A stretch of DNA of 64,000 nt from an uncultured Bacilli bacterium (GCA_905235045.1 CAJOJO010000009.1:4241-68240); one strand, 5' to 3'. Shown: positions 18,284 to 35,204, counted from the first letter of the stretch. The notes: generated by a model from the letters alone, not told the origin. Made by a program: numbers and translations.

Positions 18284-19249
18284 TTATTTTATATCTAAAT
18301 AACATTCTTTTTTTAGAAAATCAAATATTTTTTTATCATTATCTGTTTCATAGTAATCAATTAGTAATTTTTTGTATTTATTTACTTTTTCAGCAGGAAT
18401 TACAATCATCCCTTTACCTTTTGAAATTAAGTAATGATTAGCAAATATAACTGAAGTTCTTTTATTACCATCAATAAACATTTGTTTTTTTACAACATAT
18501 AATAATAATTCAATTGCTTTATCAACATCATTACTACTACTATTAACAATATTATTTATATCATCTTTAATATCAGATTCAATTGGTAAAGATGGTTTCC
18601 ATGTTGTCCCACCGATATCTACTGATACACTTCTTAACATACCAGCATTATAATAAAAGCCTTCTTCAACTAATTTGTTAATCATACATAATATTGAATA
18701 ATCTGTTTTTGATAAAATAACATTTTTATTTAAAACAAATTCCCAAGCATGTTTTAAATTTACAATCTTTAATATGTCATCTGATGACATATTATTTACC
18801 TTACCACCTTCAATAATATTTTCAGTATCAGATAAAGTTGTTGCCACACCTTCTAATATTGCTTGTTTATAAATAGTATTAGCTAAATTTTTTTTAGCAA
18901 AATCAATATTATTACTTACTTCATAAGTTAATTCTTGATCTATATAATTTAGTTCTTTTAGTTCCTTTTCTATTTTTTTAATTTCTTTTTTTAATTCTTT
19001 TGCTTTAACATTATTATTTAAAATTAAATTATATAATTCATCACTATATTCACCAATATATTTAGATTTTTTAATACCATTTATTCTTACGTGAGTATAA
19101 ATATATTTATTATTGTTTTTTTTTCTTATTTCGATTGAACCATATATTAGTTTTTCTAATTCTACTTGCTTATTTTGTTTTATATTTAGCAAACTTAATA
19201 TTTTAGCTTGAGTTTCCATAGTTATCACCTCAATATAATTATAACACAA
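18284..19249 (-). CDS. Fic/Doc (Fido)-like protein with degenerate active-site motif
   Basis: C-terminal QMFIDGNKRTSVIFANHYL resembles the Fic motif HxFx(D/E)GNGRxxR, but H is replaced by Q and G by K. N-terminal coiled coil. Confidence 0.4.
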   Translation of the reverse strand: MCYNYIEVITMETQAKILSLLNIKQNKQVELEKLIYGSIEIRKKNNNKYIYTHVRINGIKKSKYIGEYSDELYNLILNNNVKAKELKKEIKKIEKELKELNYIDQELTYEVSNNIDFAKKNLANTIYKQAILEGVATTLSDTENIIEGGKVNNMSSDDILKIVNLKHAWEFVLNKNVILSKTDYSILCMINKLVEEGFYYNAGMLRSVSVDIGGTTWKPSLPIESDIKDDINNIVNSSSNDVDKAIELLLYVVKKQMFIDGNKRTSVIFANHYLISKGKGMIVIPAEKVNKYKKLLIDYYETDNDKKIFDFLKKECYLDIK

Positions 19250-19314
19250 AAAATAAAAATGTGGAACTTTTTTTATATTTTTTTATAATTTTGTTCCACA
19301 TTTACTAAATACTA

Positions 19315-19659
19315 TTACATATTTTTTACACAATCCCAAATGGAATTCCATTTATCATCAATACGATTTTTTTCAAATACAATCTTTTTATCTTTTTTAT
19401 AAATATTATCTTCACTATCACAAAGCTCTGTTGATAAACAATAATTATATTGAATTTTTGCATTCACAGAAGAAATTATATAAAATGATATAGCTGCATC
19501 TAATTCATTGTTATTATCATCAAAATCTAATTCTATATTCTTTAATTCTTTATTATTTTCTAAAATATAATTACCAATTGCTTCACCAATATCTGGATTA
19601 TGAGCATAATCATTTTCCAAAAAATCTTTAATTTTTATTGTCTTCTTTTTATTAAACAT
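19315..19659 (-). CDS. Hypothetical protein (114 aa)
   Basis: ORF in the island cargo. No motifs. Confidence 0.3.
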   Translation of the reverse strand: MFNKKKTIKIKDFLENDYAHNPDIGEAIGNYILENNKELKNIELDFDDNNNELDAAISFYIISSVNAKIQYNYCLSTELCDSEDNIYKKDKKIVFEKNRIDDKWNSIWDCVKNM

Positions 19660-19678
19660 ATTTCCTCCTATTATTATA

Positions 19679-20566
19679 TTATAATTCTAGTGCTACTGCT
19701 TTAGAATTAGTTTTAAATTTATTTATTAATTGCAATAGTTCTGTATTATAACCTATATCAATAATAATCATTGTTCCAAATAAGGCACTTGGCATATTTC
19801 TTTTTCTTATTGTTCCCTTAATATTACGATAATATCCATTTCGAGAAATAATTGTTAGCGATCCTGAATAAGCTTTAATAAATTCTTCAATATCGTGCAA
19901 TCCTAATCCGCCAAAACTATTTGGTTTTGTCGAATTACCCATTTTAACAGCCCATGATATATATTCAGCATCATTATCGTGAAAACGATTATTTATGTAT
20001 GGTGCCACCACACATGGTATTGTAGCGCCACAATCAAATATAGAAAATCGCACATGTTGAATATTTGGATATTTTTGACCGCAACAACATATAAGATTAG
20101 TTTTTCCATGTGTTCTCGCATTTATAAATGCTTCACTTAAATATTTAATAATATAATCCGTTGCATCAATACCTAATGATAAATTCTTTAATAATTCGTC
20201 CTTTGCATATGTATCAAAACAATCCGTTTCATTGTTTAACAAATCATTCTCAAAATTTTTAAAATGAATAGCCGTATTTTTACTAAACATACTTGTATTA
20301 TTTCCAAAAATATCATGGGATAATAATATTTCTTTTATTTTATCGCTGATATTAATCATTGTGATAGTGTTGTCTGTAGTTCTTGCAATTTCATATAATA
20401 CTCCAATTATAACTATAATTTCCCCACACACAAATTTAGTTTTTTTAAAATCTAGTATTATATTATTCTTAGTCACACTTTTTATATGATTATATATTTG
20501 AATAAAACTTAAAAGTGTTTCCTCTTCATTATCAATATTTACAGGCATCTCAAACAAATATATCAC
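19679..20566 (-). CDS. GHKL/HATPase_c-type ATP-binding protein with N-terminal STAS-like region (no HisKA)
   Basis: N-box EAFINARTHG and G2-box GGLGLHDIEEFIKAYSGSLTIIS of Bergerat ATPases (SpoIIAB/RsbW-like). N-terminus has a STAS-like pattern (IILDFKKTKFVCGEIIVIIGVLYEI). Confidence 0.45.
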   Translation of the reverse strand: MIYLFEMPVNIDNEEETLLSFIQIYNHIKSVTKNNIILDFKKTKFVCGEIIVIIGVLYEIARTTDNTITMINISDKIKEILLSHDIFGNNTSMFSKNTAIHFKNFENDLLNNETDCFDTYAKDELLKNLSLGIDATDYIIKYLSEAFINARTHGKTNLICCCGQKYPNIQHVRFSIFDCGATIPCVVAPYINNRFHDNDAEYISWAVKMGNSTKPNSFGGLGLHDIEEFIKAYSGSLTIISRNGYYRNIKGTIRKRNMPSALFGTMIIIDIGYNTELLQLINKFKTNSKAVALEL

Positions 20567-20650
20567 CTACCACAAAATTGCATTACATAAGTATATTAAT
20601 TATATCATTTAGCACTATTTACATCAATATTTTTTGTATTTTTAAATAGT

Positions 20651-21262
20651 CTATTTTTCTTCATCATAAACTTCACTAATAACCCTATCTTTTAATGTAA
20701 CCTCTATTTTCGAAAGAATTGTTGCTGGATCTAAATCCTTATGATCATGGGATAATTGACATTTTTCCGGTTTAATAAAATATTGCACTTTTTCAGAACT
20801 ATCCTTCTTGCCAACATACAAAACAATTACTGTATTATTTTGTTTATCATGTTTAACATCAGTTTCTAACCAATAATTTGTATCAAGTTTAGTTTTTTTC
20901 TTTATTTCCGGAACATACCAATCATCAATTCGAATTAATTCAGCACTTTTAAGCATTGGTATGTTTAAAATTTTAAGACAATCTTTATATATCTCATCAA
21001 TATCATCAACATTAATTTCTTGATTACATATAGGGCAAAGTAAATAACCTCTAGGCCTATCATATTTTAATTCTTGTTCTTGATGTTTTATACAATGTAA
21101 ATGAATACCATTTTGACAACAATAATAATGTCGCTTCCAGTTTTCTTCTTTTTCATAAAAATTTGTACAATTACCATATGTTAAACTGTTTACAGTATTA
21201 GCCAAACTACATTGGCGAAAACAAATTTTATCATTATAACTAATTAAAACTTCACTTTTCAT
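20651..21262 (-). CDS. Cysteine-rich (zinc-ribbon-like) hypothetical protein
   Basis: Multiple Cys pairs (CFRQC, CC, CPICN) in a 203-aa protein. Confidence 0.35.
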   Translation of the reverse strand: MKSEVLISYNDKICFRQCSLANTVNSLTYGNCTNFYEKEENWKRHYYCCQNGIHLHCIKHQEQELKYDRPRGYLLCPICNQEINVDDIDEIYKDCLKILNIPMLKSAELIRIDDWYVPEIKKKTKLDTNYWLETDVKHDKQNNTVIVLYVGKKDSSEKVQYFIKPEKCQLSHDHKDLDPATILSKIEVTLKDRVISEVYDEEK

Positions 21263-21520
21263 AATTTAATCTTCCTTTATATAACTTTTTACTAATTAAA
21301 TTATATAATAAAAGTTGATTATTATCAATAAACTATCTATAGTTTTAGAGATCTATCTAAATAATTGGAATCTTGTAATAATTCAATACTACTATTGTTA
21401 AAAATTTTATACGCCTCTACTTTTGCCTTAATAATATTTTCATCAGTATTACAAAAGTTTTTAAGTCGGGATTTTGACTTAATTTAACTCATTTTTGTTT
21501 ATTTTTGTATTTTTTTGTAT

Positions 21521-22345
21521 TTAATTTACTAATTGATATATAGCTGTATCAGTAATCGTAAACATATCTAAAACATCATTTCCTATATATATTTGAACTT
21601 TTCCAAAGTCTTTTGTTTTTATAATTGCAATATTTGGTCGTGCATAATCTAAAATAGTATATGATAATCCATCAAATTGTGATGGAGCTAAAACACCACA
21701 TTCATTTCCAACAACTGGGGCTTTATCAAGAGGATATACTCGCCATGAGTCAGCTTCAGGACTCAAGTTTAATACTTTCTGATTTTTAACTTTTACATCT
21801 TTTAAATATTTCCACTCAGCTACACCTCTTATTATATTTGTATTATCCATAAAAAAAGCATCTTCTAGTTTCATTTGATTTGGTATACAATAAACACCGT
21901 CTTCATTTGGGAACCAGTCATCCTGTTTTCCTCTTCCAACTTCAATGTGACAATGAACACCTGTAGCTTTTCCTGCATTACCCATATTACCAATTTTTAC
22001 TCCTTGCTTTATAGATTGACCTACATAACAATTAATAACATTATCATGACCACATAAAAATGTAACATAATCAATGCTTCCATCAGCGAGTCTAACTTTT
22101 TCTATTGATTGCCACCAAACAAAGGCATAAGTTCTATTTATATTTACACATCTAACATCTACTGGAGCATAATATGGATATCTTATACCAGATCGTTCTC
22201 CTATAATGTCATTAGCTTCACTTCCCATATGTGATGGTGTATCGTCAGCACCCTGTGTGCAATACCAATCAGTAAAAGGACACAATACATCTTGTATTCC
22301 TCCTCTTATACTTTGCTGTCCTTTTTCCATACTATTCACCACCAC
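21521..22345 (-). CDS. M23 family metallopeptidase, endolysin-like (paired with holin)
   Basis: GQSIKQGVKIGNMGNAGKATGVHCHIEV matches the LytM/M23 C-terminal block (GxTGxxTGPHLHFE). Overlaps the holin gene stop by 14 nt (lysis-cassette arrangement). Confidence 0.6.
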   Translation of the reverse strand: MVVNSMEKGQQSIRGGIQDVLCPFTDWYCTQGADDTPSHMGSEANDIIGERSGIRYPYYAPVDVRCVNINRTYAFVWWQSIEKVRLADGSIDYVTFLCGHDNVINCYVGQSIKQGVKIGNMGNAGKATGVHCHIEVGRGKQDDWFPNEDGVYCIPNQMKLEDAFFMDNTNIIRGVAEWKYLKDVKVKNQKVLNLSPEADSWRVYPLDKAPVVGNECGVLAPSQFDGLSYTILDYARPNIAIIKTKDFGKVQIYIGNDVLDMFTITDTAIYQLVN

Positions 22346-22682
22346 TCATCTTTTCAAAATACTTTTTGAATGGTAGCTTAATTCCTAACTCACCAAGATT
22401 TTCATACACTGAAACTCCTTCAGTAGCTATGCACACAATCGCACTACCAATTAAAAACAAATTTACCTTAACAAAATAATCGATAGCAAATCCCAAGATT
22501 AATGCCACTACCCATGAAATTTTTTTTATAAATCCATCCCTAGAAATAGATGAATTTACTTTCTTATTTTTAATTGCTTTTAAATAGCCAGTTAGAATAT
22601 CTGAAAATACAAATATACCACATAATAGAAATAAAGTTTTAGGATTATTTACTTCCAATATTTTTTGAACAAATTCCTCCAT
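22332..22682 (-). CDS. Holin, TcdE/phage_holin_4_1 family
   Basis: 116 aa with 3 TM helices and a charged C-terminus. LFLLCGIFVFSDILTGYLKAIKNKK resembles the TcdE-type holin N-terminus. Directly upstream of the M23 peptidase. Confidence 0.55.
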   Translation of the reverse strand: MEEFVQKILEVNNPKTLFLLCGIFVFSDILTGYLKAIKNKKVNSSISRDGFIKKISWVVALILGFAIDYFVKVNLFLIGSAIVCIATEGVSVYENLGELGIKLPFKKYFEKMSGGE

Positions 22683-22772
22683 ATCATTTCCTCCTTTTAC
22701 AAGTTAATGATATATCAGTATCTACTAGATATTCACTAGACAAAAAAAGAATTTAGATATTTCTAAATTCTT

Positions 22773-23423
22773 TCAATTAAACTTCACAATATACCAATGT
22801 TCCTTCATTTTTTTAATTGAATTAACTCCATCAACAAGATTATTAATCTTTTTCTTATCAACTGATGAATAGATTATACTTGTTCCTTCATCCGGAAATG
22901 ATCCTATGATTTTAAACTCAATAAGTATATCTTTTTTATTAAACAAATGTATATATACTTCATCATTTATTGATAAATTTTTATATTGAGTAGGCAATTT
23001 TAAATAATTGTTTTCTTCTACCAAATCGAGTTGTTTAATATAATTTATAGCATTTACCCTGTCATCATATTTATTTTTAAATTCAATATTTAATTTAATA
23101 GTGGCAGGATTAAAAACAACAAATAAAAAAGTAAAAGTTGCTAAAAAAATTATTGGATAAACATCGCTTATAGTTTTAACTTCAATAAGTTTTTTGAATG
23201 ACAAAAATAATAATAGTATATATCCAAAAAAAATTATAAAAATTGGTGTTCCAACTAATAGCAAAACAATAATAAACAATTCATCGAAAAACCAAAACAA
23301 TACAAAAGAATAAACGAATAGTAAAAATTCAAAACATATCAATTTCATATTTGTTATATTTTTTAACATAATATCACTAACCTTTATTATATTAATAATA
23401 GCATGATTACCTAATTTTTTCAA
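22773..23423 (-). CDS. Polytopic membrane protein, candidate immunity protein for the RHS C-terminal toxin
   Basis: Four TM helices plus a C-terminal soluble domain. Sits immediately 3' of the RHS toxin C-terminus, the canonical immunity position. Confidence 0.4.
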   Translation of the reverse strand: MKKLGNHAIINIIKVSDIMLKNITNMKLICFEFLLFVYSFVLFWFFDELFIIVLLLVGTPIFIIFFGYILLLFLSFKKLIEVKTISDVYPIIFLATFTFLFVVFNPATIKLNIEFKNKYDDRVNAINYIKQLDLVEENNYLKLPTQYKNLSINDEVYIHLFNKKDILIEFKIIGSFPDEGTSIIYSSVDKKKINNLVDGVNSIKKMKEHWYIVKFN

Positions 23424-23568
23424 GTGAAATCTTTCTATTAAATTTTTAATATTTGCTAACTTTTTGATTATATTAGTATATTATCAAAAGTTTAATTTGT
23501 AATAATTAACAATAAAAATCTACGTGAAATAAATACGTAGATTTTTTAAATTAATACTGGACAATCTC

Positions 23569-25020
23569 TTATTTCATATTGTCATATAAATGATATCCTA
23601 AAGTAATATAATATGTATCTCTTGGATCATCACAAACTGAAGCGGTAAAACAATTTACATAAGTTTCAAGATTATTCCAGTGCTCTTTTAATTGATATAA
23701 CCCAGCTCCTGTCGTTAAGAAATCTAGATCATAACCTATTGCATTTCCTATATATCCAAAATTGATATTTCCTGCATCTTCGGGATCTAAAACTATACCA
23801 TTATACGAAAATGATTTGTTCCACTCAGGAGTTCGCTTTAAGTCAAATTTTCCTCCTGATCCAACATCTTCAACAAAATTAATTAAATTAACTACAGCAG
23901 GTTTATATTTTGTTTCAGCAATTACATCAGCTGCATTTTTTTTCAAAGTATCATTAAATTTTTTAGTTTTATCTGGAACTTTTTTCTTTTGTGTCTTTGC
24001 AATCGCTTTTTTAGCTTTTGAATTTTGACAATCAGTATTTACAAGGGAAATTGCTCCTACAATTACAACAGCTGCAACTATAAGTGTAAATAATCCATGT
24101 CCATCAGGATCAGTATAATTTATAGGGTTATTATTACAATATAAGTACATATTATATCCTAAAACCCCTGTATCAGTTGATAAATAATTATCAGCATTAA
24201 TAAATCTACCCCATAATGGATTATAATATCTACTATTTAAATAATATAGTTTAGTTTCTTTATCATAATAAAAACTTCTGTATCTATATGGATTAATATT
24301 TGCTATATGATTACTATTATTAGAAACATCTAAACCTGTACCATCCGTAATAGAAATTATAGTACCCCATGAATCATATTCATAATTTGCAACAATGTTA
24401 TTATTACTATCAATTATTTGTATAATATCATTTTGTGCATTTTTTACGTAATAATATGTATCATTATTATATTGTAATCCAATCAATCCATTTGCACTAT
24501 TTCGTAGATAATAAATAATGTCATTATTTCTTGTTTCAAAAACAACATCGTTATTCTCAATATAATAGCTAGTATCAACATTATTTATTGTCTTCTTAAT
24601 TCTTATGCCATCTTTGTCATATTTATAGTTGATTGATAAATTTAAATTACTATCAATATAACTTTCAAGCTGTCTACCATTTATCCATGTAAGTGATATA
24701 TTATTACTTATTGATGTTGGATTACCAATATTATCATATACTATAGAATTACCATTAAAAGTTGTTAATTGATCTGTCCAATCATGATTATTATATTCAA
24801 ATTTATAATTTTCTAATTGATTATATGTATCTAGTTCATATACTGTTTTTTTTGTCATATTACCATATTTATTATACTTATATCTTATTGTGATACCCAA
24901 ACTATAATCATCTTCTCTAATTAATTCATTATACTTATCGTAATAATATTTTTTTTCTAAAGTGTTATCATTATATATACAACTAATGTTACCTAATTTA
25001 TTATATTTATACTTTATCAA
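23569..25020 (-). CDS. RHS-repeat protein, C-terminal part: YD repeats, RHS core end, TM helix and ~150-aa C-terminal toxin domain (3' portion of a frameshifted gene)
   Basis: YD-repeat units. Core-domain terminus YYNPLWGRFINADNYL...NPINYTDPDGH (the DPxGL boundary), followed by LFTLIVAAVVIVGAISLV and a unique domain. Confidence 0.6.
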   Translation of the reverse strand: MIKYKYNKLGNISCIYNDNTLEKKYYYDKYNELIREDDYSLGITIRYKYNKYGNMTKKTVYELDTYNQLENYKFEYNNHDWTDQLTTFNGNSIVYDNIGNPTSISNNISLTWINGRQLESYIDSNLNLSINYKYDKDGIRIKKTINNVDTSYYIENNDVVFETRNNDIIYYLRNSANGLIGLQYNNDTYYYVKNAQNDIIQIIDSNNNIVANYEYDSWGTIISITDGTGLDVSNNSNHIANINPYRYRSFYYDKETKLYYLNSRYYNPLWGRFINADNYLSTDTGVLGYNMYLYCNNNPINYTDPDGHGLFTLIVAAVVIVGAISLVNTDCQNSKAKKAIAKTQKKKVPDKTKKFNDTLKKNAADVIAETKYKPAVVNLINFVEDVGSGGKFDLKRTPEWNKSFSYNGIVLDPEDAGNINFGYIGNAIGYDLDFLTTGAGLYQLKEHWNNLETYVNCFTASVCDDPRDTYYITLGYHLYDNMK

Positions 25021-28000
25021 ATTATTATTATTAGTATAGAAGTTCGCTTACCATTTGATACATAATCATATTTGGTTTCATAGTAATTATTTATTTTACT
25101 TTTAGTAATTCTTCCTAATTCGTCATATGTATTATCTAAACTAGAATTATCTAACAAGCAATTACTTATTCCATCGCCATCATTTAATGTATTATCTATT
25201 GTATGTGATGCATTATTTAATAAATATGTTTTTGAAACAATATTGTTATTTGCATCATAACTATATTTAATTGTAAAATTTCCATTTTTTAACATTGAAA
25301 GTCTCTTTGCCAAATCATACACATACTTAATTGAATTTTCGTTAGTTACTATTTTAAGTAAATCACCATTGCTACCATATTTATAATTATAAATATTATC
25401 CATAGTAGTTAATTTAATAATTCTACCAAATTCATCGTAATCAAATCGTATTTCTTGATTATTGCCATATTTAGAAGTAATTAAATTACCATTATTTGAT
25501 TCATATGTATTGGTCATCATTGTAATATTATTACCAATTTTAACTTTAGAAACATTTAAAAATTCATCATATTCATATTTGTAAATTCTATCATCTTGAG
25601 ATATTTGTGATATATGATTATTATTATTATAAATATAATTTATAACTTTATCACCTGAAGAAATTGATGATATTTGATTTTTATTATTATATTCATAATT
25701 AGTTATTATAATATCATTGTTATTAATTGATTTTATTAACCCTGACACTTGATCATATTCATATTTAGTAGTTTTAAAATTTGAATCAATAGTTTTTGAT
25801 ATAAATCTTCCATCAGTTGTATACTCAGCACTTTTTTCAATAAATTTGCTATTAGTTATACTTTCAAAATAAAATTCATATGCAGGATCACTATTAACTA
25901 AATCATCAATTATTAAATTATTATTTGATACTTTTAAAAACTTTTGTGTTTGCTTGTTTTTTATCACAAAACTACCATTATCATGTCTATCAAATTCGAA
26001 AAGTGAATTATCATTTTGATAGTTTGACATAATAATTGAACTATTACTTATTGTAATATATTTTTCAATAATTGAATGTTTTATTTTAAAATAATCAATA
26101 TTATTTATAGTTACTTTTTCAATTATCCACTTACAATGTGCATGTAAATCTTCCTGTATATTAACTAGATTATTAATACAATTAATATTATTATATGTAC
26201 CACTTTGTCTTATAATATATACTCCATCAACTATTTCTTTACATTGTCCTCTATTAATCATTTTTGTTGATACAATATTACCAAACTCATCATAATCATA
26301 CTCAGTAGAAATTCCTATTTCTGATACACCTTTTAAAAGTTTATTATCACTATCATATTCATATGTAAATTTTTGGCCTTTTGGATTTTTTGAACTAATT
26401 AATTGATTTTGAACATTATATTTATATTCAGTCGTATTATTATCCAAGTGTTTGGTTTTAATTATATTACCTTCATCATCATAATCATATGTGCTATTTC
26501 TAATATCTTTAAACATATTTATATTTGTTATATAAAACTCATTACCATTTAATTCTTGGTTAAAAATAATATTTACTGCATTAAAATCCCATGGAGCTAT
26601 CATTTGCGAAGAATAGAATTGCCATTCGTTTTCATTTGGATTAAGTGCTACTTCAAAAAATCCACCATCTGTTTGTTGTTGTTGAACCGGAATAAAACTA
26701 ACGAACACATTGCATCTTGTTCCACTTCCTAAACCTGTACCGCCTAATAGTCCTGTATGCTTATACCAAAATGATATATTAAATAAATCTCCTTCTCTAC
26801 CACATATATTTAGTCGTTGACTAATACTTGATGTATTTGAAGTATTCATATTAATTTTTAAGCAATTTACATTATCGACAGTAGTTGCTTCAAAAACAGA
26901 ACTAACCGGGAAATTTTGACCTGAATATTGTGTCCATTGACTTAATCCATTAGAAAAATCGGAATTTTCAATCATGTTATAATTATTTGCTACTTCACCA
27001 ATTTCTAATTGAAAATCGTCACAATAGTAATAACCAATTTCTTCCATTATAAGAATAATTTTCAGATTACTATTTGCATTTGATGGATAAAAAATTGTAA
27101 CATCATTTCTTTCAAATTCACTTTCTGTTGAAATAGTACTAGACGAAGATACTTCTTGATTATTTTCATCAATATAAGATAATCTAATTGTTAAATGTTT
27201 GTTGTCTGTTTTAAAATAACCACTAAAAGTATAGAATTTTCCTTTTTCTACAGAAACATCTTGATATGTCGATTGTACTGGATTTGCGCAAGTAATTCTT
27301 AAACTTTGGAAACCTGTATTAGCATAATTAGTAGTTGTTGTTAATGAAACATTATTATTTGGAACAAACAAAATATCATTTAAATCTGTACTTTCAAAGC
27401 TTGAATTTGTTAAAAAATTTTTAACATATCTTATAGGCATATTATTTTTTAAAAGTTTGTTTTTATAAGTGTTTTCACCAAAATATGATACACCATAATC
27501 AATATTTAAGCCATAACCATCATTAATATTGTTATATTCCTTTAATGTAGAAGTAGAAACAGGATTACCATAATCATTAAATGTTATTGTATTAGATCTT
27601 CCATACGAATCTAAAATTGTCGTTGCATTAAATCCATATGTTACTTCGTAATATTTTCCAAGTGTTTGATTACTACCATATTCACTTATTTTTTTTATTT
27701 TATATGGTAAATTACCATAATATTGATATTCTAATTTTTTTCCAGTAACATCTTCAATATCAGTAATTAAACTATTGTTATTATTTGATATACTTACAAC
27801 ACCAAGTGATGATTGAACGCTTATTAAATTATTACTATTATTATATGTTAAATAGAAAGTATCATCACTACTAATAATTGTTATTTGATTTGCGCTATAT
27901 TGAATGTTAATTTCATTTTCATTAACATCAGTAACTTTATTTATACGATTATTTGTATCATAGCTTATTGTTATTATATTATTGTTAATATCCTTAATTT

Positions 28001-29774
28001 CTGTCAAATATCCAATACCGTTTATTTTAAGAAATTTTTTTTCAGTTTTATTTTTATCTCTTAATATATAATAATTATCATTATTTTCTATTACTAAATT
28101 CAATCCATCCTCATCAAAAAATGTATTTTCATAAGTAGTAGTATTGTAGTTATTTGTATTATTATCATACATAACTCTTTGATTTAAAAAATAATGTATT
28201 GTCCCATCTTCGTCAATATATTCCAAATAATTAGTATTTTCAATTAATCGTGATTGTATTGTTTGATGATAATTTAATCTATATCCTATACCATAACCAA
28301 TATCATTCCCTAATACAACATCATTAGTATTATATACCAATTTTAAATTTGCCGGTAAATTACCTCCAATTGTTTGACCTATATTCATTATAGTTGTTAA
28401 ATTACCATTATAAAGATTGTGGCATATTTCACCTAAACTCATTTCTTGTCTTTGGTAACTCATATACTGTTCTAATCCATTTTGATTCCTATATGTTATT
28501 ATCAAATATGGTTTTGGGTTAGTACCTGTAACTGAATTGTTTTTTGAAAAAAACATAGGAATAATATCTGTTTTGTATACTTCATTACTTAATTTTAACA
28601 TCATACCATAGTTTGGAGTTTCTGTATACCATTTTTGAACTAAAGGAGTTATATCAGCACCTGATAAACTTAATATTATGTTACCATTACCATCTTCATA
28701 ATGAATTCTGCGACATATAAATGTTCCTTCTACTCTTGAATCAAATTTATCATTCATTGAATTCCATGTTGCTGTTGTTTCATCCCACGATGTTGTAATT
28801 CTATATATATTGACAATATCAGATGAATATGAAAATGTATAATCTGGATAATTTCGTAAATTTAATTTTGCTGAAATAACTTGACTTCCTGTTCCTAATG
28901 TGGGTAAATCAAATTTTAATAATGATCTATTTATTCTATCACTACCACTTATTCTTTCTACACCAACTTTTAAGAAATCTCTGCTATTTCTGTCATCATT
29001 TGTATCACCAGGATATATGTATGTGTCATACACATTACCATTTTGAGCATTATTCGTAATTGTTGGATCAATAATAACAGGATATTTAATACCTGAGTTT
29101 AACCACTCTTTATCAAGAATTGTTTTTAACTCATAACTATTATCTATTTTATTTAATTCATATTCTACATTGATATTAAGTTCACCACTTGAATCCATCA
29201 TAAATGGCACTTCAAACTTAAATACACATTCATCATTATTCATAGCGATTATACTATCATTTTCTAATTTTAAATCTAAATCAGTGTCAATCTTAAACAC
29301 TAATTTATCAATATCAGAATCTCTATCTTTTATATAAATGCTTTCTTTTACTCTAGATGAAACTAGATCATAACATATATCAACATTTTTTAAAACATTA
29401 ATATATTTTATTTTACCAATAAGTTTTGACATAGACTCTTCTTGTACTATATCAAATTGATTATAGTCTTTTAAAGAGAATGATATAAAATGATTATCTT
29501 TTTCTATTCTCATTAACTCAGGTTTAGGAACTGCAGTGAATAACACTTTATTTTCATTAGCTTTATTTACATAATGATCATCTTCTAAAATCAATGTGTT
29601 ATCAATTTCTTCAAACTTGCCATTATTAAAATAATGAATATTTTCATCATACATTTCTGCTCTGAATTCACCATTTTCTTGGAGAAAATGTTTTTCTTTA
29701 GGTCCTCTTTTATCGACTATTTCTATTTCTTTCATATTTACCTCCTTAATTTTTATATTTAGATAACTTTTCAA
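25017..29774 (-). CDS. RHS/YD-repeat protein, N-terminal 1585 aa (5' portion of a frameshifted gene), with beta-trefoil/lectin-like insert
   Basis: Dozens of YD repeats (YEYDSDNKLL, YDYDEFGNIV, YSYDANNNIVSKTY). Overlaps the next ORF by 4 nt in another frame inside an att-att-att run, and the YD repeats continue across the junction. Confidence 0.6.
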   Translation of the reverse strand: MKSYLNIKIKEVNMKEIEIVDKRGPKEKHFLQENGEFRAEMYDENIHYFNNGKFEEIDNTLILEDDHYVNKANENKVLFTAVPKPELMRIEKDNHFISFSLKDYNQFDIVQEESMSKLIGKIKYINVLKNVDICYDLVSSRVKESIYIKDRDSDIDKLVFKIDTDLDLKLENDSIIAMNNDECVFKFEVPFMMDSSGELNINVEYELNKIDNSYELKTILDKEWLNSGIKYPVIIDPTITNNAQNGNVYDTYIYPGDTNDDRNSRDFLKVGVERISGSDRINRSLLKFDLPTLGTGSQVISAKLNLRNYPDYTFSYSSDIVNIYRITTSWDETTATWNSMNDKFDSRVEGTFICRRIHYEDGNGNIILSLSGADITPLVQKWYTETPNYGMMLKLSNEVYKTDIIPMFFSKNNSVTGTNPKPYLIITYRNQNGLEQYMSYQRQEMSLGEICHNLYNGNLTTIMNIGQTIGGNLPANLKLVYNTNDVVLGNDIGYGIGYRLNYHQTIQSRLIENTNYLEYIDEDGTIHYFLNQRVMYDNNTNNYNTTTYENTFFDEDGLNLVIENNDNYYILRDKNKTEKKFLKINGIGYLTEIKDINNNIITISYDTNNRINKVTDVNENEINIQYSANQITIISSDDTFYLTYNNSNNLISVQSSLGVVSISNNNNSLITDIEDVTGKKLEYQYYGNLPYKIKKISEYGSNQTLGKYYEVTYGFNATTILDSYGRSNTITFNDYGNPVSTSTLKEYNNINDGYGLNIDYGVSYFGENTYKNKLLKNNMPIRYVKNFLTNSSFESTDLNDILFVPNNNVSLTTTTNYANTGFQSLRITCANPVQSTYQDVSVEKGKFYTFSGYFKTDNKHLTIRLSYIDENNQEVSSSSTISTESEFERNDVTIFYPSNANSNLKIILIMEEIGYYYCDDFQLEIGEVANNYNMIENSDFSNGLSQWTQYSGQNFPVSSVFEATTVDNVNCLKINMNTSNTSSISQRLNICGREGDLFNISFWYKHTGLLGGTGLGSGTRCNVFVSFIPVQQQQTDGGFFEVALNPNENEWQFYSSQMIAPWDFNAVNIIFNQELNGNEFYITNINMFKDIRNSTYDYDDEGNIIKTKHLDNNTTEYKYNVQNQLISSKNPKGQKFTYEYDSDNKLLKGVSEIGISTEYDYDEFGNIVSTKMINRGQCKEIVDGVYIIRQSGTYNNINCINNLVNIQEDLHAHCKWIIEKVTINNIDYFKIKHSIIEKYITISNSSIIMSNYQNDNSLFEFDRHDNGSFVIKNKQTQKFLKVSNNNLIIDDLVNSDPAYEFYFESITNSKFIEKSAEYTTDGRFISKTIDSNFKTTKYEYDQVSGLIKSINNNDIIITNYEYNNKNQISSISSGDKVINYIYNNNNHISQISQDDRIYKYEYDEFLNVSKVKIGNNITMMTNTYESNNGNLITSKYGNNQEIRFDYDEFGRIIKLTTMDNIYNYKYGSNGDLLKIVTNENSIKYVYDLAKRLSMLKNGNFTIKYSYDANNNIVSKTYLLNNASHTIDNTLNDGDGISNCLLDNSSLDNTYDELGRITKSKINNYYETKYDYVSNGKRTSILIIII

Positions 29775-30135
29775 TTTCTTTTTTTACATTTGGATAGTAA
29801 TTCTTCCATAATGTAGATACATCTTTATTTTCTTCTTCAGAAACTTTTTCAATTGCTTTAGAAACACTTGTCCCATTAATAACAATTTCTTTATATAATT
29901 TGTTTTCAATACCACTTAAATTACATATATCTTCTTCTATTTTTTTAATGACTTTGTTGTATTGGCTTATAGTTTTTTTAATCAGTTCTATTTCAGCTAA
30001 GATGCCTCTTTCATATTGAGTTAATAGTTTTAATCTTTCTTGCAAACTGTCTAACTCAACTTTTGTGTTAATATAGTTATCTATACATTTCATATAATAT
30101 TTCGCGAAAAAGAACATTACGCAGTTCTTTTCCAA
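29746..30135 (-). CDS. Hypothetical coiled-coil protein (129 aa)
   Basis: ORF between the tail-collar gene and the RHS gene. Overlaps both ends. Confidence 0.35.
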   Translation of the reverse strand: MEKNCVMFFFAKYYMKCIDNYINTKVELDSLQERLKLLTQYERGILAEIELIKKTISQYNKVIKKIEEDICNLSGIENKLYKEIVINGTSVSKAIEKVSEEENKDVSTLWKNYYPNVKKEIEKLSKYKN

Positions 30136-31289
30136 GTATATACTTCATATCTAAGTGGAGTTACACTGTGTGTATGTGAGTTTAAAGTATGTGTATGACC
30201 TTGTCCACCACCAGTGTTATTATTAGTAGCTGTCGCATTTTGTGTATAATAAGTTACTAAAGCTGCACCTGCATAGAATCCTGAACTACCAGCTGGTCTA
30301 GTGTCATAATGAGCTGGGTCATTCATCCAAGTATTGTTATTTTGTGCATGACTATGTGGGTTTTGAGTATGTGTATGGCTTGGCATTTGTGCTACGGTTA
30401 ATGCTGTGCTACCAGTTGTATTTGTACTTGGTCCACCTGATGTATTACTTCCTGCTGTGTTACCACCATCACCAGCATATAAATAATATCCATTAATTCT
30501 ATCCCATGTTCCACCAAATAATGTTGCTGGGCTTGTACTACTTACTGAAAGATAAATACTACCAACAGGATATATTAAATCAACAACTTCAGAACTAGTT
30601 AATCCACCACCAATTGGTGTACCATTAATTGTAAGTGAATTAGCAACTATGTTTCCAGCGTTGTCAATGCTAAATGTATTATTTTTAGACGTAATACATT
30701 TTGCAGTTAAATTATCTACTTCAATATTTAATTCATCTCCGATTTTTGTGAATGCGTCTTTGAAGTAAATGTCGTCTAGTGAGAAATCATCACACGCTTC
30801 AGTGTGTCTAGCATAAATTACACTATTAACGAATAGTCTGTTTAAATCATCATCTTTTGGATATACGATTATAATATCAGCATCTGTATAATTAGTATAA
30901 ATGTAATTAGTTCCTTCAAATAAAGTTATGTCTATAGTATCTAATTCTTCGACTACAGGTTCAGATAAAACTGAATTATCGCTTCCAATTAGTCTATTAA
31001 CATATGCCTCTAGAACTATCTTGTTATTCTTTAATGCTACTTTTTGAACTACTTCATCACCCTCCCCACTAGCATATCTTAAAATATCAGTAAGATTGAA
31101 AACATATTGTTTTCTATCATTACTAGGATTTGAAGATGATTGTTTATCAACATAGATAACCAAATCATTTTCATTTGGTGCTACTGATGTCGCACCCATC
31201 TTAATTTTTATCCCTAATGCTGCCGCATTTAGAGAGTCTTGTAAGCTGATTTCATTTGTACCGCTTACGCTTTGATTCGTTAAATTCAT
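30117..31289 (-). CDS. Phage tail fibre protein with C-terminal tail-collar (MdpB-like) domain
   Basis: IYPVGSIYLSVSSTSPATLFGGTW ... LTVAQMPSHTHT ... HSH ... GHTHTLNSHTH matches the phage tail collar domain signature (xPVGSIxxS ... FGGTW ... LTxxQMPxHxH). Confidence 0.6.
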   Translation of the reverse strand: MNLTNQSVSGTNEISLQDSLNAAALGIKIKMGATSVAPNENDLVIYVDKQSSSNPSNDRKQYVFNLTDILRYASGEGDEVVQKVALKNNKIVLEAYVNRLIGSDNSVLSEPVVEELDTIDITLFEGTNYIYTNYTDADIIIVYPKDDDLNRLFVNSVIYARHTEACDDFSLDDIYFKDAFTKIGDELNIEVDNLTAKCITSKNNTFSIDNAGNIVANSLTINGTPIGGGLTSSEVVDLIYPVGSIYLSVSSTSPATLFGGTWDRINGYYLYAGDGGNTAGSNTSGGPSTNTTGSTALTVAQMPSHTHTQNPHSHAQNNNTWMNDPAHYDTRPAGSSGFYAGAALVTYYTQNATATNNNTGGGQGHTHTLNSHTHSVTPLRYEVYTWKRTA

Positions 31290-31426
31290 ATTCTTATCAC
31301 CCTTTCTTGATTTAACACCTACATAGTAATTTAAACTTTACTGGATATTCACTAGACTTTTTTTCTTTTTTCAAAAAAAAGAAACAAATAGTTATCTCAT
31401 TTGTTTCCCCATTTAAATTTAATTTT

Positions 31427-31921
31427 TTATATAGTTTTCACATCTTCTTTAAAATTAAGTGTCAACTTTTGTCTAGCGCTAATTATAGATGCATAGACCG
31501 AGTGAACTGAACATCGTTCTATTTCAGCGATTTCTCGCAATGACATTTCATAAAAATAATACATTATTAATCTTTTCTTTTGAGTAACCGACAAACACTC
31601 AATAAATTTATATAATTGCTCACACATTATTTTATTAAAAACTATTTCTTCAACTGATCTAGGTTTATATCGTAAACGACGATATAATGTTTCCTCGATC
31701 ATTTCAGATTGTTCTATATGTCTTTCATATTTATGTCTTTGTGAAATTTCTTCTAATTTAAAATTATTAAACTCATTATAAATTACTTTATCAACTTTAA
31801 CGTAATTTTCTACATTTTTTGAATCCTTAAATATAACGTAATAATCCCCATTAATTATTATTAATTTATATGGATTATTAAATAACCTATGTATCACATC
31901 CAACCTCCAATCATTATACAA
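31427..31921 (-). CDS. ArpU-family / sigma-70 region-4-like transcriptional regulator (phage late-gene activator type)
   Basis: C-terminal LSVTQKKRLIMYYFYEMSLREIAEIERCSVHSVYASIISARQKL is a sigma-70 region-4 HTH. There is no region 2, so it is not a full sigma factor. First gene inside the island next to tRNA-His. Confidence 0.5.
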   Translation of the reverse strand: MYNDWRLDVIHRLFNNPYKLIIINGDYYVIFKDSKNVENYVKVDKVIYNEFNNFKLEEISQRHKYERHIEQSEMIEETLYRRLRYKPRSVEEIVFNKIMCEQLYKFIECLSVTQKKRLIMYYFYEMSLREIAEIERCSVHSVYASIISARQKLTLNFKEDVKTI

Positions 31922-32163
31922 AAAATGAATAATGGAGGTGATCTATTTTTAATAAAAAAAGTAGTTATTTTTAAATAACTACTTACTACTATATAATTTT
32001 TAAATTTAAATATTTGTACAACCTGTAAAATCATAAGCATGCCACCAAACTCTATGTGTTAAGATGGTACTGCTTAATATCTTAACTAAAAACTATAATA
32101 ATTATATAATAATTTTTATTAAAATTAAATATTTATTTGCAATAAATTAATTTTAATAAAAAA

Positions 32164-32375: not shown

Positions 32376-32819
32376 TTGGGAGGAATAATTATGTATAATA
32401 ACCTAGATTATTATAATTATATGAACAATAATTATAATCAACCATTATATACGGAAAATAATAATCCTAAAGAATTATATGATCCACTAGAAGGATTTAT
32501 AAGAGGTAACTTATTTCCAGAATTATATAATGGTTATAAAGTTAAACCAATTAGCTTAAAACCAGTAAATGAACAAGCTAAAATGTTAACTACTTTAGAT
32601 GCTTTGTGTTTTGCCTTAACTGATCTTAATTTATATCTTGATATTTATCCAGATGACAGAGATATGTTAGAACTATTTAATCAATATAGAATTCAAATAA
32701 ATAATATTAAAACTATCTATGAAGATAAATTTGGACCATTAACAATTAATAGTGATGCGAATGATACATATCCATTTATTTGGATAAATAATCCTTGGCC
32801 ATGGATGGGAGGTAATTAA
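32376..32819 (+). CDS. cotJB: Spore coat protein CotJB family (possibly with CotJA-like N-terminal extension)
   Basis: ALCFALTDLNLYLDIYPDDRDMLELFNQYRIQINNIKTIYEDKFGPLT matches the CotJB core. N-terminal GNLFPELY resembles the CotJA motif. Overlaps the cotJC start by 1 nt. Confidence 0.65.
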   Translation: MGGIIMYNNLDYYNYMNNNYNQPLYTENNNPKELYDPLEGFIRGNLFPELYNGYKVKPISLKPVNEQAKMLTTLDALCFALTDLNLYLDIYPDDRDMLELFNQYRIQINNIKTIYEDKFGPLTINSDANDTYPFIWINNPWPWMGGN

Positions 32820-32820
32820 G

Positions 32821-33390
32821 ATGTGGAAATACGAAAAAAAATTAGAATATCCAGTTAATATAAATAAAAAAGATTTAGTAATGGCTAAATGTTTACTTGC
32901 TCAATATGGTGGGCCAGATTCTGAATTAGGAGCTTGTTTAAGATATTTTACCCAAAGATTTACTATGCCTGATGCGAAAGGTAGAGCTTTACTTACCGAT
33001 ATTGCTACCGAAGAAATGGCCCACTTAGAAATAATTGGTGCTATGATATCAGGTTTAATGAAAGATGCAACTATTGATGAACTAAAAAAAGCTGGCTTGG
33101 CTGGCACATTTACAATGCATGATGGAGCTTTGTTCCCTGCAAGTCCCGAAGGAGTACCATTTACTGCTGCTTATATAGAAGCAAGTGGTGACTTTATTGC
33201 CGACTTAGAAAGTGATATGGCAGCTGAACAAAGAGCACGTGCTACCTACGAACACTTAATGGATTTAACTGATGATGTTGATGTTTTAGGACCTCTTTCT
33301 TTCTTAAGGCAAAGAGAAGTAGTTCATTATCAAAGATTTAAAGAATTAAGAAATTATTACTTAGATAATAAAATAGAAAAAAACTCTTAA
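32821..33390 (+). CDS. cotJC: Spore coat protein CotJC (manganese catalase family)
   Basis: 189 aa, the same length as CotJC. MWKYEKKLEYPVNINKKDLVMAKCLLAQYGGPDSELGACLRYFTQRF ... EEMAHLEIIGAM shows the ferritin-like Mn-catalase motifs. Confidence 0.85.
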   Translation: MWKYEKKLEYPVNINKKDLVMAKCLLAQYGGPDSELGACLRYFTQRFTMPDAKGRALLTDIATEEMAHLEIIGAMISGLMKDATIDELKKAGLAGTFTMHDGALFPASPEGVPFTAAYIEASGDFIADLESDMAAEQRARATYEHLMDLTDDVDVLGPLSFLRQREVVHYQRFKELRNYYLDNKIEKNS

Positions 33391-35204
33391 GAGTTTTTTA
33401 TTTTGCTATCAGCTTTTTTACGTTCGGCAGTATTTAATATTTTTTTACGCATACGAATACTTAAAGGTGTTACTTCAACATATTCATCACTATTAATATA
33501 ATCTAGACAATATTCTAAAGATAAAGGACGTGGTCTTTTTAAAACAACAGTATGATCTTTACCTGCACTTCTGGTATTAGTTAAATTTTTACCTCTTACT
33601 GGATTTACAGCTAAATCATTTTCATGTGTATGTTCACCAACAATCATACCTTCATATACATTAACACCTGGTTCAATAAACATGATACCACGGTCCTCTA
33701 ATCCACCTAAAGCATAAGCTGTAGATTGTCCATTTTCCATCGAAACTAAAACACCTAATTTTCTTTCACCAACATTAGTACTAGCTAATTTACGATATTC
33801 TTTAAAAGAATGATTTATAATACCATAACCTTTAGTCATAGTCATAAATTCAGTTGAAAATCCAATTAAACCACGTGATGGAATTGTATAAGTTAATCTA
33901 ACTTGATTTTCATGATTTACCATGTTTTCCATATTTCCTTCTCTTATACCTAAAGCTTCGATAACATTACCAACATATTCTTCAGGTACATCAATTTGAA
34001 CATCTTCATATGGTTCCATTTTAATACCATCTTTTTCTTTTATAATAACAACTGGCTTTGATACTTGAAGTTCAAATCCTTCACGACGCATATTTTCAAT
34101 TAAAATTGATAAGTGTAATTCTCCTCTACCAGATACAATAAATGATTCATTATCATTTGGTTCAACTTTTAATGAAACATCTCGTTCAGTTTCTTTTAAT
34201 AATCTTTCTTCTATTTTACGAGCTGTAACTATTTTACCTTCCTTACCAACAAATGGTGATGTATTAACGCCAAAAGTCATTTGTAATGTTGGTTCATCAA
34301 TACGTAAAAGTGGTAAAGCTTCTTCCTTTCCTACTTCACATACTGTTTCACCTACTGATATATCTGGTAAACCTGATATAGCAATAACGTCACCCGCACT
34401 TGCTTCATTTATTTCAATTCTTTTTAATCCTTTATAGCCAAATATTTTGGCAATTCTAAATTGTTTAATTGAACCATCTAATCTAACACAAGAAACCATT
34501 TCACCAGTTTTAATTGTTCCTCTTTTAACAACACCAATACCAATTCTTCCAACAAAATCATTATAATCTAATAAAGCTGGTTGAAATTGTAAACTGCCAA
34601 CTTCCGTTTTAGGCGAAGGAATATGTTTAATAATTGTATCTAAAATTGGTTCCATTGTTTCTTTTTGGGTTGTTATATCAGAATCATAAGAAGAAGTTCC
34701 ATTAATTGCTGATGCATAAACAACTGGGAAGTCTAATTGATCTAAATCAGCTCCTAATTCAATAAATAAATCCATTACTTCATCGATTACTTCTTTTGGA
34801 CGAGCTGTATCTTTATCTATTTTATTAACAACAATTATTGGTGTTACCCCTGCCTCTAAAGCTTTTTTAAGAACAAATCTAGTTTGTGGCATTGTTCCTT
34901 CGTAAGCATCAACAACAAGTAATACACCATCAACCATATTCATGATTCTCTCTACTTCACCACCAAAATCAGCATGACCTGGAGTATCTAAAATATTAAT
35001 AGTATATCCCTTATAATCAATTGCTGTTGGTTTAGCTAAGATGGTAATTCCTCTTTCTCTTTCAATATCATTTGAATCCATCGCACGTACTTCAACATTT
35101 TCATTTTCTCTAAATGTTCCGGAAGATTTTAATAATCCGTCTACTAAAGTTGTTTTACCATGGTCAACGTGTGCGATAATAGCGATATTTTTAATATTTT
35201 TCAT
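33387..35204 (-). CDS. typA: Translational GTPase TypA/BipA
   Basis: [22 protein letters not shown] ... [14 protein letters not shown] ... NKIDK. 605 aa with EF-G-like domain architecture. Confidence 0.9.
   Translation of the reverse strand: [605 protein letters not shown]

Follow-up and report, generated by a model that had tools for sequence, protein, structure and literature searches.

The window analysed here, a 64,000-nucleotide (nt) stretch of DNA from an uncultured Bacilli bacterium (GCA_905235045.1 CAJOJO010000009.1:4241-68240), carries on its minus strand a large gene of the RHS polymorphic-toxin type that is broken into two open reading frames (ORFs). What has split this gene, can its toxin still be made, and how would a protein of this kind leave the cell? 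To our knowledge, the exit of large RHS toxins that lack a signal peptide from Gram-positive cells is poorly understood. We hold with good confidence that the locus as a whole is best explained by one RHS-Ntox44 toxin gene, a likely immunity gene beside it, a recent 16-nt deletion and, for the intact toxin, a putative release through an adjacent lysis cassette. The toxin architecture (RHS, Ntox44 and immunity) is known, the toxin domain is catalogued and the deletion is simple, and in these respects the locus is ordinary; its conserved phage-derived neighbours, which encode fibre-like, holin, cell-wall hydrolase and sigma-like proteins, are the more interesting part.

Origin of the split in the RHS gene

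An earlier reading of the window, made from its sequence alone (the sequence-only reading), described two ORFs, at 25017-29774 (ORF1, 1585 aa) and 23569-25020 (ORF2, 483 aa), as a single RHS toxin gene split by a frameshift. Our analysis bears this out: both ORFs are present on the minus strand, in different frames and with a 4-nt overlap (TTGA); YD/RHS repeats lie on both sides of the junction, as searches with Pfam and NCBIfam profiles show (PF05593, E 4e-23 in ORF1 and 5.7e-8 in ORF2; TIGR01643, E 5e-20); and the same locus is a single ORF in other assemblies. The sequence DPDGH, taken earlier for the end of the RHS core, is indeed its end: the RHS-associated core model TIGR03696 (E 1.5e-18) covers ORF2 residues 215-308 and finishes in PINYTDPDGH, where the self-cleavage motif PxxxxDPxG[LH] can be read directly. 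The true start of the RHS gene is most likely the ATG at 29735 (MKEIEIV...), which matches all homologues as well as the gene calls on identical contigs.

Comparison with other assemblies locates the lesion. Contigs of the same locus were retrieved by exact-sequence look-up with the holin protein, and more via BipA and the downstream protein; five independent metagenome assemblies were compared with the window. Three of them align without a mismatch and with the same 16 nt as sole gap: L009 (Logan ERR3525315; 14,092 nt aligned), L010 (ERZ27234817; 8,183 nt) and L044 (ERZ1667847; 8,610 nt). L043 (ERZ28573638) aligns in segments of 7,152 and 3,020 nt that flank scaffold Ns, again with 0 mismatches and with the 16-nt gap in the 7.2-kb segment; the scaffold L039 (ERZ28573579), which is 100.9 kb long and shares the BipA-CotJC-CotJB flank, aligns over 21.8 kb with 8 mismatches and differs by the 16-nt gap plus 1 nt. 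An apparent loss of the holin gene from L043 was dismissed, as L043 7153-7252 proved to be a stretch of Ns that marks a scaffold gap.

In the intact allele the site reads ACTTCTA[TGCTGATTAAAAGTAT]TACTAAT, i.e. ACTTCTA[TGCTGATTAAAAGTAT]TACTAATAATAATAAT, and the bracketed 16 nt are lost in the window. The junction is 25037/25036 or, owing to a 1-nt T ambiguity, 25036/25035, and it lies 4 nt upstream of an (AAT)4 tract; the loss removes five codons plus 1 nt and shifts the frame. The intact gene is one ORF of 2060 aa in L009, L039, L043 and L044 (L010 holds a partial ORF that crosses the junction), and its protein across the lesion site is ...YDYVSNGKRTSMLIKSITNNNNLIKYKYNKLGNI...; the homologues L001, P0002 and P0003 also cross the site in one frame, P0003 reading ...NGNKTSTVLKSMKINNDLYEY.... 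A continuous frame from N-terminus to toxin is absent in the window copy, which is the disrupted member; its annotation should mark the gene as disrupted and put the lesion at 25036/25037, not in the repeat.

The sequence-only reading had placed the frameshift inside the ATT repeat, and had proposed three causes for it: true pseudogenisation, slippage-mediated phase variation at (ATT)n, or an assembly indel. The placement does not hold, as only the overlap of the two ORFs touches the edge of (AAT)4, and the true lesion is the 16-nt deletion outside the tract. Of these causes, true pseudogenisation has the most support, an assembly indel keeps a minor share of the probability, and slippage falls away. 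Slippage phase variation at the repeat, or a programmed ribosomal frameshift, would toggle expression of the toxin, and the TTGA overlap does adjoin (AAT)4; we nevertheless regard the chance of either as next to negligible. Slippage of a trinucleotide unit cannot shift the frame, which in practice rules phase variation out; all six sequences (the window and the five assemblies) carry (AAT)4, and P0002 has SNNND at the aligned place; and the deletion 4 nt upstream accounts fully for the frame change. Programmed frameshifting is unsupported because no X_XXY_YYZ slippery heptamer was seen on reading the sequence and because no homologue is split at the site, all of them being single-frame here.

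Is the 16-nt gap itself an artefact of assembly or sequencing, with the source organism carrying the intact 2060-aa gene? Two observations speak for this and against a real deletion: apart from the gap, the window shows 0 mismatches to contigs that hold the intact allele; and the split products (483 and 1572 aa) are on record in no indexed assembly (exact-product look-ups, gene-position index), the window being known from an assembly and not from reads. Errors of short-read and long-read platforms are mostly 1-2-nt homopolymer indels, and it would be atypical of them to drop 16 nt cleanly from a sequence that is not repetitive and offers just 1 nt of microhomology. Moreover, lone inactivating lesions are found in two related RHS genes (a TGA in L001 and a TAA in L027, both in unverified metagenome assemblies), and real decay of toxin genes is plausible in this clade because of them. 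We consider an artefact unlikely; the most likely reading of the sequences is an inactivating deletion, which appears to be recent and strain-specific because the five other assemblies of the locus are intact.

A third possibility is a split RHS that still functions, the two ORFs giving two chains that form one shell in the manner of TcB/TcC, or that ORF2 is an orphan toxin cassette kept for recombination. A two-chain shell has a precedent in TcB/TcC (PMC10847048, PMC10847046), and short RHS-C-terminal/Ntox44 ORFs (280-570 aa) are numerous among the database relatives, some of them being true orphans, either 3' of a main rhs gene (L004) or solitary (L003, L005). However, ORF1 has no toxin or immunity gene of its own and ends mid-repeat in an out-of-frame tail; the TTG start of ORF2 was made by the frameshift, is an accident of the new frame, and has no Shine-Dalgarno-like sequence ahead of it (as seen by direct reading of the bases upstream of 25020); and the arrangement is unique to this genome, the locus being one ORF in the five other assemblies. 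A functional split, or a cassette, is very improbable on this evidence. Given that the 3' ORF has no ribosome-binding site, and that the 1572-aa N-terminal product ends before the final quarter of the shell and so has neither cleavage site nor toxin, the toxin is most likely not made in this genome, and the immunity gene is kept. The window would thereby offer a case of a toxin lost and an immunity retained in a natural population of which the other members sampled still have the weapon.

The C-terminal toxin domain

Past the RHS core, the sequence-only reading saw a transmembrane (TM) helix and a domain of about 150 aa that it could not place in a known toxin family. The helix is confirmed by hydropathy as one hydrophobic helix at about ORF2 residues 305-332, and a domain of about 150 aa follows it. 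The domain, by contrast with that reading, does have a place: it is Pfam PF15607, Ntox44, matched over the full model, well above the family cut-off of 24 bits (Table 1), and with all three signature motifs. Ntox44 was defined as an all-alpha domain with DxK, GNxxxG and DxxxD motifs (Zhang et al. 2012, PMC3482391); the window protein has FDLK, GNINFG and DDPRD at these places, and the motifs fall in invariant columns of alignment A4 (20 homologues), the invariant residues being K90, G112-N113, G117, D159 and D163. Structure prediction, which had been suggested as a check, agrees with this assignment: the AlphaFold2 (AF2) model of the C-terminal part has a mean predicted local distance difference test score (pLDDT) of 90.7 and consists of a long N-terminal helix, a helical bundle and one small hairpin. 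No solved structural relative of Ntox44 was found, a PDB sequence search giving nothing significant and Foldseek against the PDB a best E of 2.1.

The literature points to a nuclease function of the family. TseR, a PAAR-Ntox44 type VI secretion system (T6SS) effector of Yersinia pseudotuberculosis, is a cation-/metal-dependent RNase according to a review (PMC13577199), and Ntox44 is counted among the characterised nuclease domains in another (PMC9635880). The window protein shares with TseR the same Pfam domain, above the cut-off and with the three motifs, at the C-terminus of a polymorphic toxin. The two differ in their carriers, a Firmicute RHS shell in the window compared to a PAAR/T6SS spike for TseR; they differ also in that a TM helix and a Lys-rich linker stand ahead of the domain, and a membrane protein is encoded next, in the window, whereas the immunity protein of TseR is presumably soluble.

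Most Firmicute RHS-Ntox44 homologues likewise have, directly after the RHS cleavage motif and ahead of Ntox44, a hydrophobic helix and a linker rich in Lys (A4; window 23569-24105). Orphan RHS-C-terminal/Ntox44 ORFs of 453-573 aa are present in L005-L008 (P0003), L003 (P0007) and L004 (P0012). The L004 orphan lies 3' of a 2312-aa main RHS gene and has a DUF5412 gene next to it; the L003 orphan is solitary. In L005-L008 the truncated RHS-Ntox44 gene stands beside ileS and is followed by genes for a membrane protein of 191 aa, a holin (Phage_holin_4_1) and a peptidase (M23/PG_binding_1); P0003, the RHS-Ntox44 protein of these loci, was read on nine contigs.

The immunity candidate

The gene that follows the toxin had been described as encoding a polytopic membrane protein in the canonical immunity position. 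Three hydrophobic segments are indeed present in its product (22773-23369/23423), and the protein is a reasonable immunity candidate, homologous to that encoded 3' of the RHS-Ntox44 gene in L001. Its start is most likely at 23369 and not at 23423, judging from homologues and from gene calls on identical contigs. The candidate matches the L001 downstream protein with a BLASTP E of 9e-7, and the L001 RHS-Ntox44 protein is 44% identical to that of the window in the best segment. Across 16 loci, downstream genes resemble one another only where the toxin tails are also similar (three pairs, none otherwise); this toxin-linked similarity matches the covariation expected of toxin and immunity. The product of 22773-23369 is therefore the likely cognate immunity protein, as far as sequence comparison can tell. 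No Pfam, NCBIfam or PHROG family matches it, and a homologue search returned only the protein itself.

Several points weigh against this reading of the toxin and its immunity. The RNase link comes from review statements on a distant Gram-negative PAAR-Ntox44 effector only. Ntox44 toxins of comparable identity are paired with at least three unrelated downstream proteins: DUF5412 proteins come after those of L003 and L004, and an unrelated 191-aa protein after that of L005. The proteins encoded downstream of Firmicute Ntox44 domains all have a membrane anchor, which is strange if the toxin is, as presumed, an RNase of the cytoplasm; and the positive-inside rule places the C-terminal domain of the window candidate outward, which is likewise unusual for such a target.

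The N-terminal domain and the clade

At the other end of the protein, the N-terminal ~330 residues match the N-terminus of gp18 of Bacillus phage PBC1 and PHROG 37549; PBC1 gp18 is a virion structural protein, and its gene comes directly after the tape-measure gene. The RHS N-terminal domain (window 28986-29735) corresponds to no Pfam family. A full HMMER scan of a library of 1.84 billion proteins found the domain in 6099 cluster representatives, 3139 of them at E <1e-10. The best matches are nearly all 2000-2100 aa long and have the domain from residue 1, and weaker ones carry N-terminal extensions of 45-140 aa. The C-terminal tails of the clade are unrelated between members, and we therefore regard it as a polymorphic-toxin family. 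The window protein has no hydrophobic segment in its first 60 residues by hydropathy and no signal peptide; a signal peptide is present in the distant homologue L016. The gene is a member of a large clade of RHS toxins that are ~2050 aa long and have no signal peptide. Other approaches to the N-terminus returned little: a homologue search with it gave only 4 fragments; an AF2 model of the domain from 5 sequences was all-beta with a pLDDT of 61 and had no significant Foldseek match in the PDB; and scans of IMG/VR with ORF1 and the Gp10_C protein found no relatives.

WapA of Bacillus subtilis is a Gram-positive toxin with RHS/YD repeats. As in WapA and other RHS toxins of Gram-positives (Zhang et al. 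2012, PMC3482391), the window protein combines a YD-repeat shell with a core ending in PxxxxDPxG[LH], its variable C-terminal toxin is followed by an immunity gene, and relatives contain orphan C-terminal cassettes. In contrast to them, it has neither a Sec signal peptide nor a known trafficking domain; its N-terminus is the domain in common with PBC1 gp18; and the genes of its clade nearly always have a Gp10_C fibre-like gene just 5'.

Premature stops are found elsewhere in the clade. In L001 a TGA at 4238-4240 stands where the closest homologue has Arg, and in L027 a TAA at ~12737-12739 is aligned with Gln. Recoding of TGA as Trp in L001 was considered and rejected, as the codon aligned with it in the closest homologue is an Arg codon (CGA). 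With the window included, 3 of ~16 full-length RHS genes are disrupted, which suggests either recurrent toxin loss or low-coverage assembly errors.

Gene neighbourhood and the proposed release route

On the minus strand, the RHS gene stands in the order sigma-70 region-4, Gp10_C, 123-aa protein, RHS, immunity candidate, holin and M23 endolysin, after which four further genes follow (Table 1). From established RHS biology, the YD repeats of the intact protein would form a shell that encloses the C-terminal cargo of hydrophobic helix, Lys-rich linker and Ntox44, and this cargo would be freed by aspartyl self-cleavage at DPDG/H. The gene context suggests the remaining steps: the intact toxin is probably released via the adjacent holin and M23 endolysin; the sigma-like protein may switch on this release; and the Gp10_C fibre-like protein is a candidate targeting or receptor-binding partner. 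We infer release via the lysis cassette because the toxin has no export signal. The M23 endolysin, RHS and Gp10_C proteins all lack an N-terminal hydrophobic segment (hydropathy) and signal peptides.

Table 1. Features of the RHS locus in the window (A4, alignment of 20 homologues; L009, L010, L039, L043 and L044, same-locus assemblies)
Feature	Position	Strand	Description and basis
Sigma-70 region-4 protein	31427..31894	-	156 aa as called on identical contigs; first gene of the module
Gp10_C tail-fibre-like protein	30117..31289	-	390 aa; PF21939 E 6e-14; PHROG 6465 (tail protein) E 1e-14
123-aa protein	29746..30117	-	Between fibre and RHS genes; gene call in L009 and L039
RHS 5' part	25017..29735	-	1572 aa from ATG 29735; out-of-frame tail ...TSILIIII-stop; ORF listing
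ORF1 domains	25017..29735	-	N-terminal phage-virion-protein-like domain, DNRLRE_dom E 2.8e-26, YD_repeat_2x, RHS_repeat
Deletion junction	25036..25037	-	16 nt (TGCTGATTAAAAGTAT) missing from the window; blastn and direct comparison with L009, L010, L039, L043, L044
(AAT)4 tract (ATT on + strand)	25021..25032	-	NNNN in intact protein; ordinary coding sequence, not the lesion site
RHS 3' part, ORF2	23569..25020	-	483 aa: last YD repeats, RHS core, TM helix, Lys-rich linker, Ntox44
Hydrophobic helix	24031..24096	-	Directly after RHS cleavage motif; hydropathy, A4, AF2 model helix residues 3-38
Ntox44 (PF15607) toxin domain	23578..23880	-	Pfam E 1.9e-15, 57.5 bits, model 1-104 of 104
Candidate immunity protein	22773..23369	-	198 aa, three predicted TM segments, ~110-aa C-terminal domain; hydropathy/charge
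Holin (Phage_holin_4_1)	22332..22682	-	Pfam E 3.1e-19; PHROG 199; homologous to phage PBC1 holin
M23 endolysin	21521..22330	-	269 aa; PHROG 9066 (endolysin) E 2.6e-18
Four genes past endolysin	18284-21262	-	203 aa; 289 aa (matches PHROG 3364, a family of unknown function, at E 6e-37); 114 aa; Fic protein; present in those same-locus assemblies that reach this far

Conservation of this context was followed by a metagenome scan with an alignment of the RHS N-terminus, which gave 22 loci at 35-55% identity (L017-L038). A Gp10_C-like gene lies directly 5' of the RHS gene in 21 of these 22 loci and in L001, the stop of the fibre gene and the start of the RHS gene often overlapping; the exception, L032, has just ~210 nt of upstream sequence. 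The Gp10_C-RHS pairing is kept at 35-49% identity. M23 homologues are present in nine related loci (L017, L019, L021, L023, L026, L028, L029, L036 and L038) as well as in the window; among the loci with long flanks they occur in 8 of 10, counting L009, the window's own locus, and in at least three gene orders. Some M23 loci also have a holin gene, a sigma-like gene or both, and sigma-like homologues lie near the RHS gene in L017, L021, L022, L026 and L038.

Three arrangements can be distinguished. In the window and L017 the order is sigma, fibre, RHS, small gene, holin and M23; in a second arrangement, fibre, RHS, small gene and M23/LysM are followed by a sigma-like gene (L021, L026) or by holin and sigma-like genes (L038); and in the third, helix-turn-helix (HTH), XhlA-like, small two-TM protein and M23 genes come before fibre and RHS (L019, L023, L029). 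The flanks of several loci are housekeeping genes: aminotransferase/YunG and pyrimidine-nucleoside phosphorylase in L026, LepA, HemN and SpoIIP in L030, and TyrRS in L027. No phage structural genes were found in the flanks of L026, L027 or L030 or on the CotJ/BipA side of the window. A supposed myovirus baseplate module 5' of the fibre gene in L027/L030 proved wrong, the genes in question encoding LepA, HemN, SpoIIP, TyrRS and an ABC transporter. In two loci of the third arrangement, a 112-116-aa protein with an N-terminal TM segment, a coiled coil and a weak XhlA match, and a 72-73-aa two-TM protein, are encoded before M23 (L019 7606-8167, L029 2063-2634); the surroundings of M23 there resemble a PBSX-type xhlA-xhlB lysis cassette.

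The same neighbourhood could be explained without any role in toxin biology: the fibre, holin, M23 and sigma genes would be all that is left of a decayed prophage in which the RHS gene was a passenger, and its neighbours would have no part in release or targeting. Several observations favour this and weigh against our release model, whose mechanism is drawn from gene neighbourhood only. The accessory genes are all phage-like, all four matching phage families in PHROG; a PBC1 virion protein is similar to the N-terminus of the RHS protein, and the window holin is homologous to that of PBC1; the long loci L027 and L030 show no M23 or holin gene; and a Mob_Pre gene lies upstream in L019. A further point against the release model concerns the sigma-like protein, for which a tblastn of plasmids, expected to include clostridial uviA, botR and tetR plasmids, showed no similarity to the toxin sigma factors borne on them. 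A link to clostridial UviA/BotR/TetR was set aside, as this search gave only Enterococcus matches in an uninformative context.

On the other side, the Gp10_C-RHS pair persists in 21 of 22 loci at 35-49% identity, and M23, with or without holin and sigma genes, recurs in at least three orders in cassettes that are compact between housekeeping genes and contain no capsid, portal or tape-measure genes. The RHS, Gp10_C and M23 proteins are all without signal peptides, and the combination of sigma factor, holin and endolysin follows a logic already established for Bcn5 bacteriocins and for the large toxins of clostridia (PMC9527704). We regard the decayed-prophage explanation as a real possibility that falls well short of even.

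Release of the toxin through its lysis cassette would have parallels in two known systems. The RHS-containing Tc toxins leave the cell via a lysis cassette, the type 10 secretion system (T10SS; PMC10847048). In Yersinia entomophaga this consists of holin, endolysin and spanin (PMC10847048, PMC10847046), and the window resembles it in having a signal-less RHS-shell toxin beside a phage-type holin and endolysin. Unlike that system, the window belongs to a Gram-positive host and has no spanin; its toxin is of antibacterial type with an immunity gene and not an insecticidal ABC complex; and no TcA is encoded, whereas a Gp10_C fibre-like gene adjoins the RHS gene. The clostridial loci (TcdR/TcdE/TcdL of C. 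difficile, UviA/UviB of Bcn5 in C. perfringens; PMC9527704) share with the window a large signal-less toxin that is flanked by a holin, an endolysin and a small protein of the sigma-70 family. The window differs from them in that its toxin is an RHS polymorphic toxin, its endolysin is an M23 peptidase and not an amidase, and its sigma-like protein has only region 4 recognisable.

The proposed route would thus parallel both T10SS release of Tc toxins and the logic of the clostridial pathogenicity locus (PaLoc). We found no description of a fibre-RHS-lysis-cassette module in Firmicutes in the searchable literature. Tentatively, and with slightly less than even confidence, we propose that the window represents an apparently undescribed class of Firmicute RHS toxins of ~2050 aa, with an N-terminus derived from a phage tail or virion protein, a Gp10_C partner, and holin/M23 release under a sigma-like regulator. 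If this is true, the class would be a Gram-positive antibacterial analogue of the T10SS-released Tc toxins, in which the fibre serves as the receptor-binding component. A clade of thousands of cluster representatives, tied to a fibre-like gene and often to a lysis cassette, provides a testable candidate route of release.

Other features of the locus

The sigma-like protein matches Sigma70_r4_2 (E 3.9e-8), PHROG 1740 (RNA polymerase sigma factor) and, under the cut-off, the sigma70-ECF superfamily of NCBIfam (E 1e-8). The Pfam match of the endolysin to Peptidase_M23 (E 5e-6, 27.0 bits) falls just below the 28.7 cut-off. In PADLOC, the genes past the endolysin gave just weak Fic-related matches (PDC-S04/S05). 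On the opposite flank lie cotJB, cotJC (Mn-catalase-like) and bipA (window 32376-35204); as the module adjoins these genes, the host is a spore-forming Firmicute, with ~25% G+C.

Searches for a wider phage or island context were negative. No capsid, portal or tail-tube genes occur in the surroundings of the module, and a megablast of 20000-32000 against GenBank phages gave no match. The G+C content shows no clear island boundary, and scans for promoters and terminators gave no useful information, the DNA here being AT-rich. A PDB sequence search with the sigma-like and Gp10_C proteins gave nothing significant.

The 123-aa protein has no family match and no hydrophobic or TM segment; homologues of it are encoded 5' of the RHS gene in L031-L033. 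The fibre-like protein carries its Gp10_C domain at the C-terminus, with a tip rich in HxH motifs, and the Gp10_C gene is present in three tandem copies in L031, L033 and L038.

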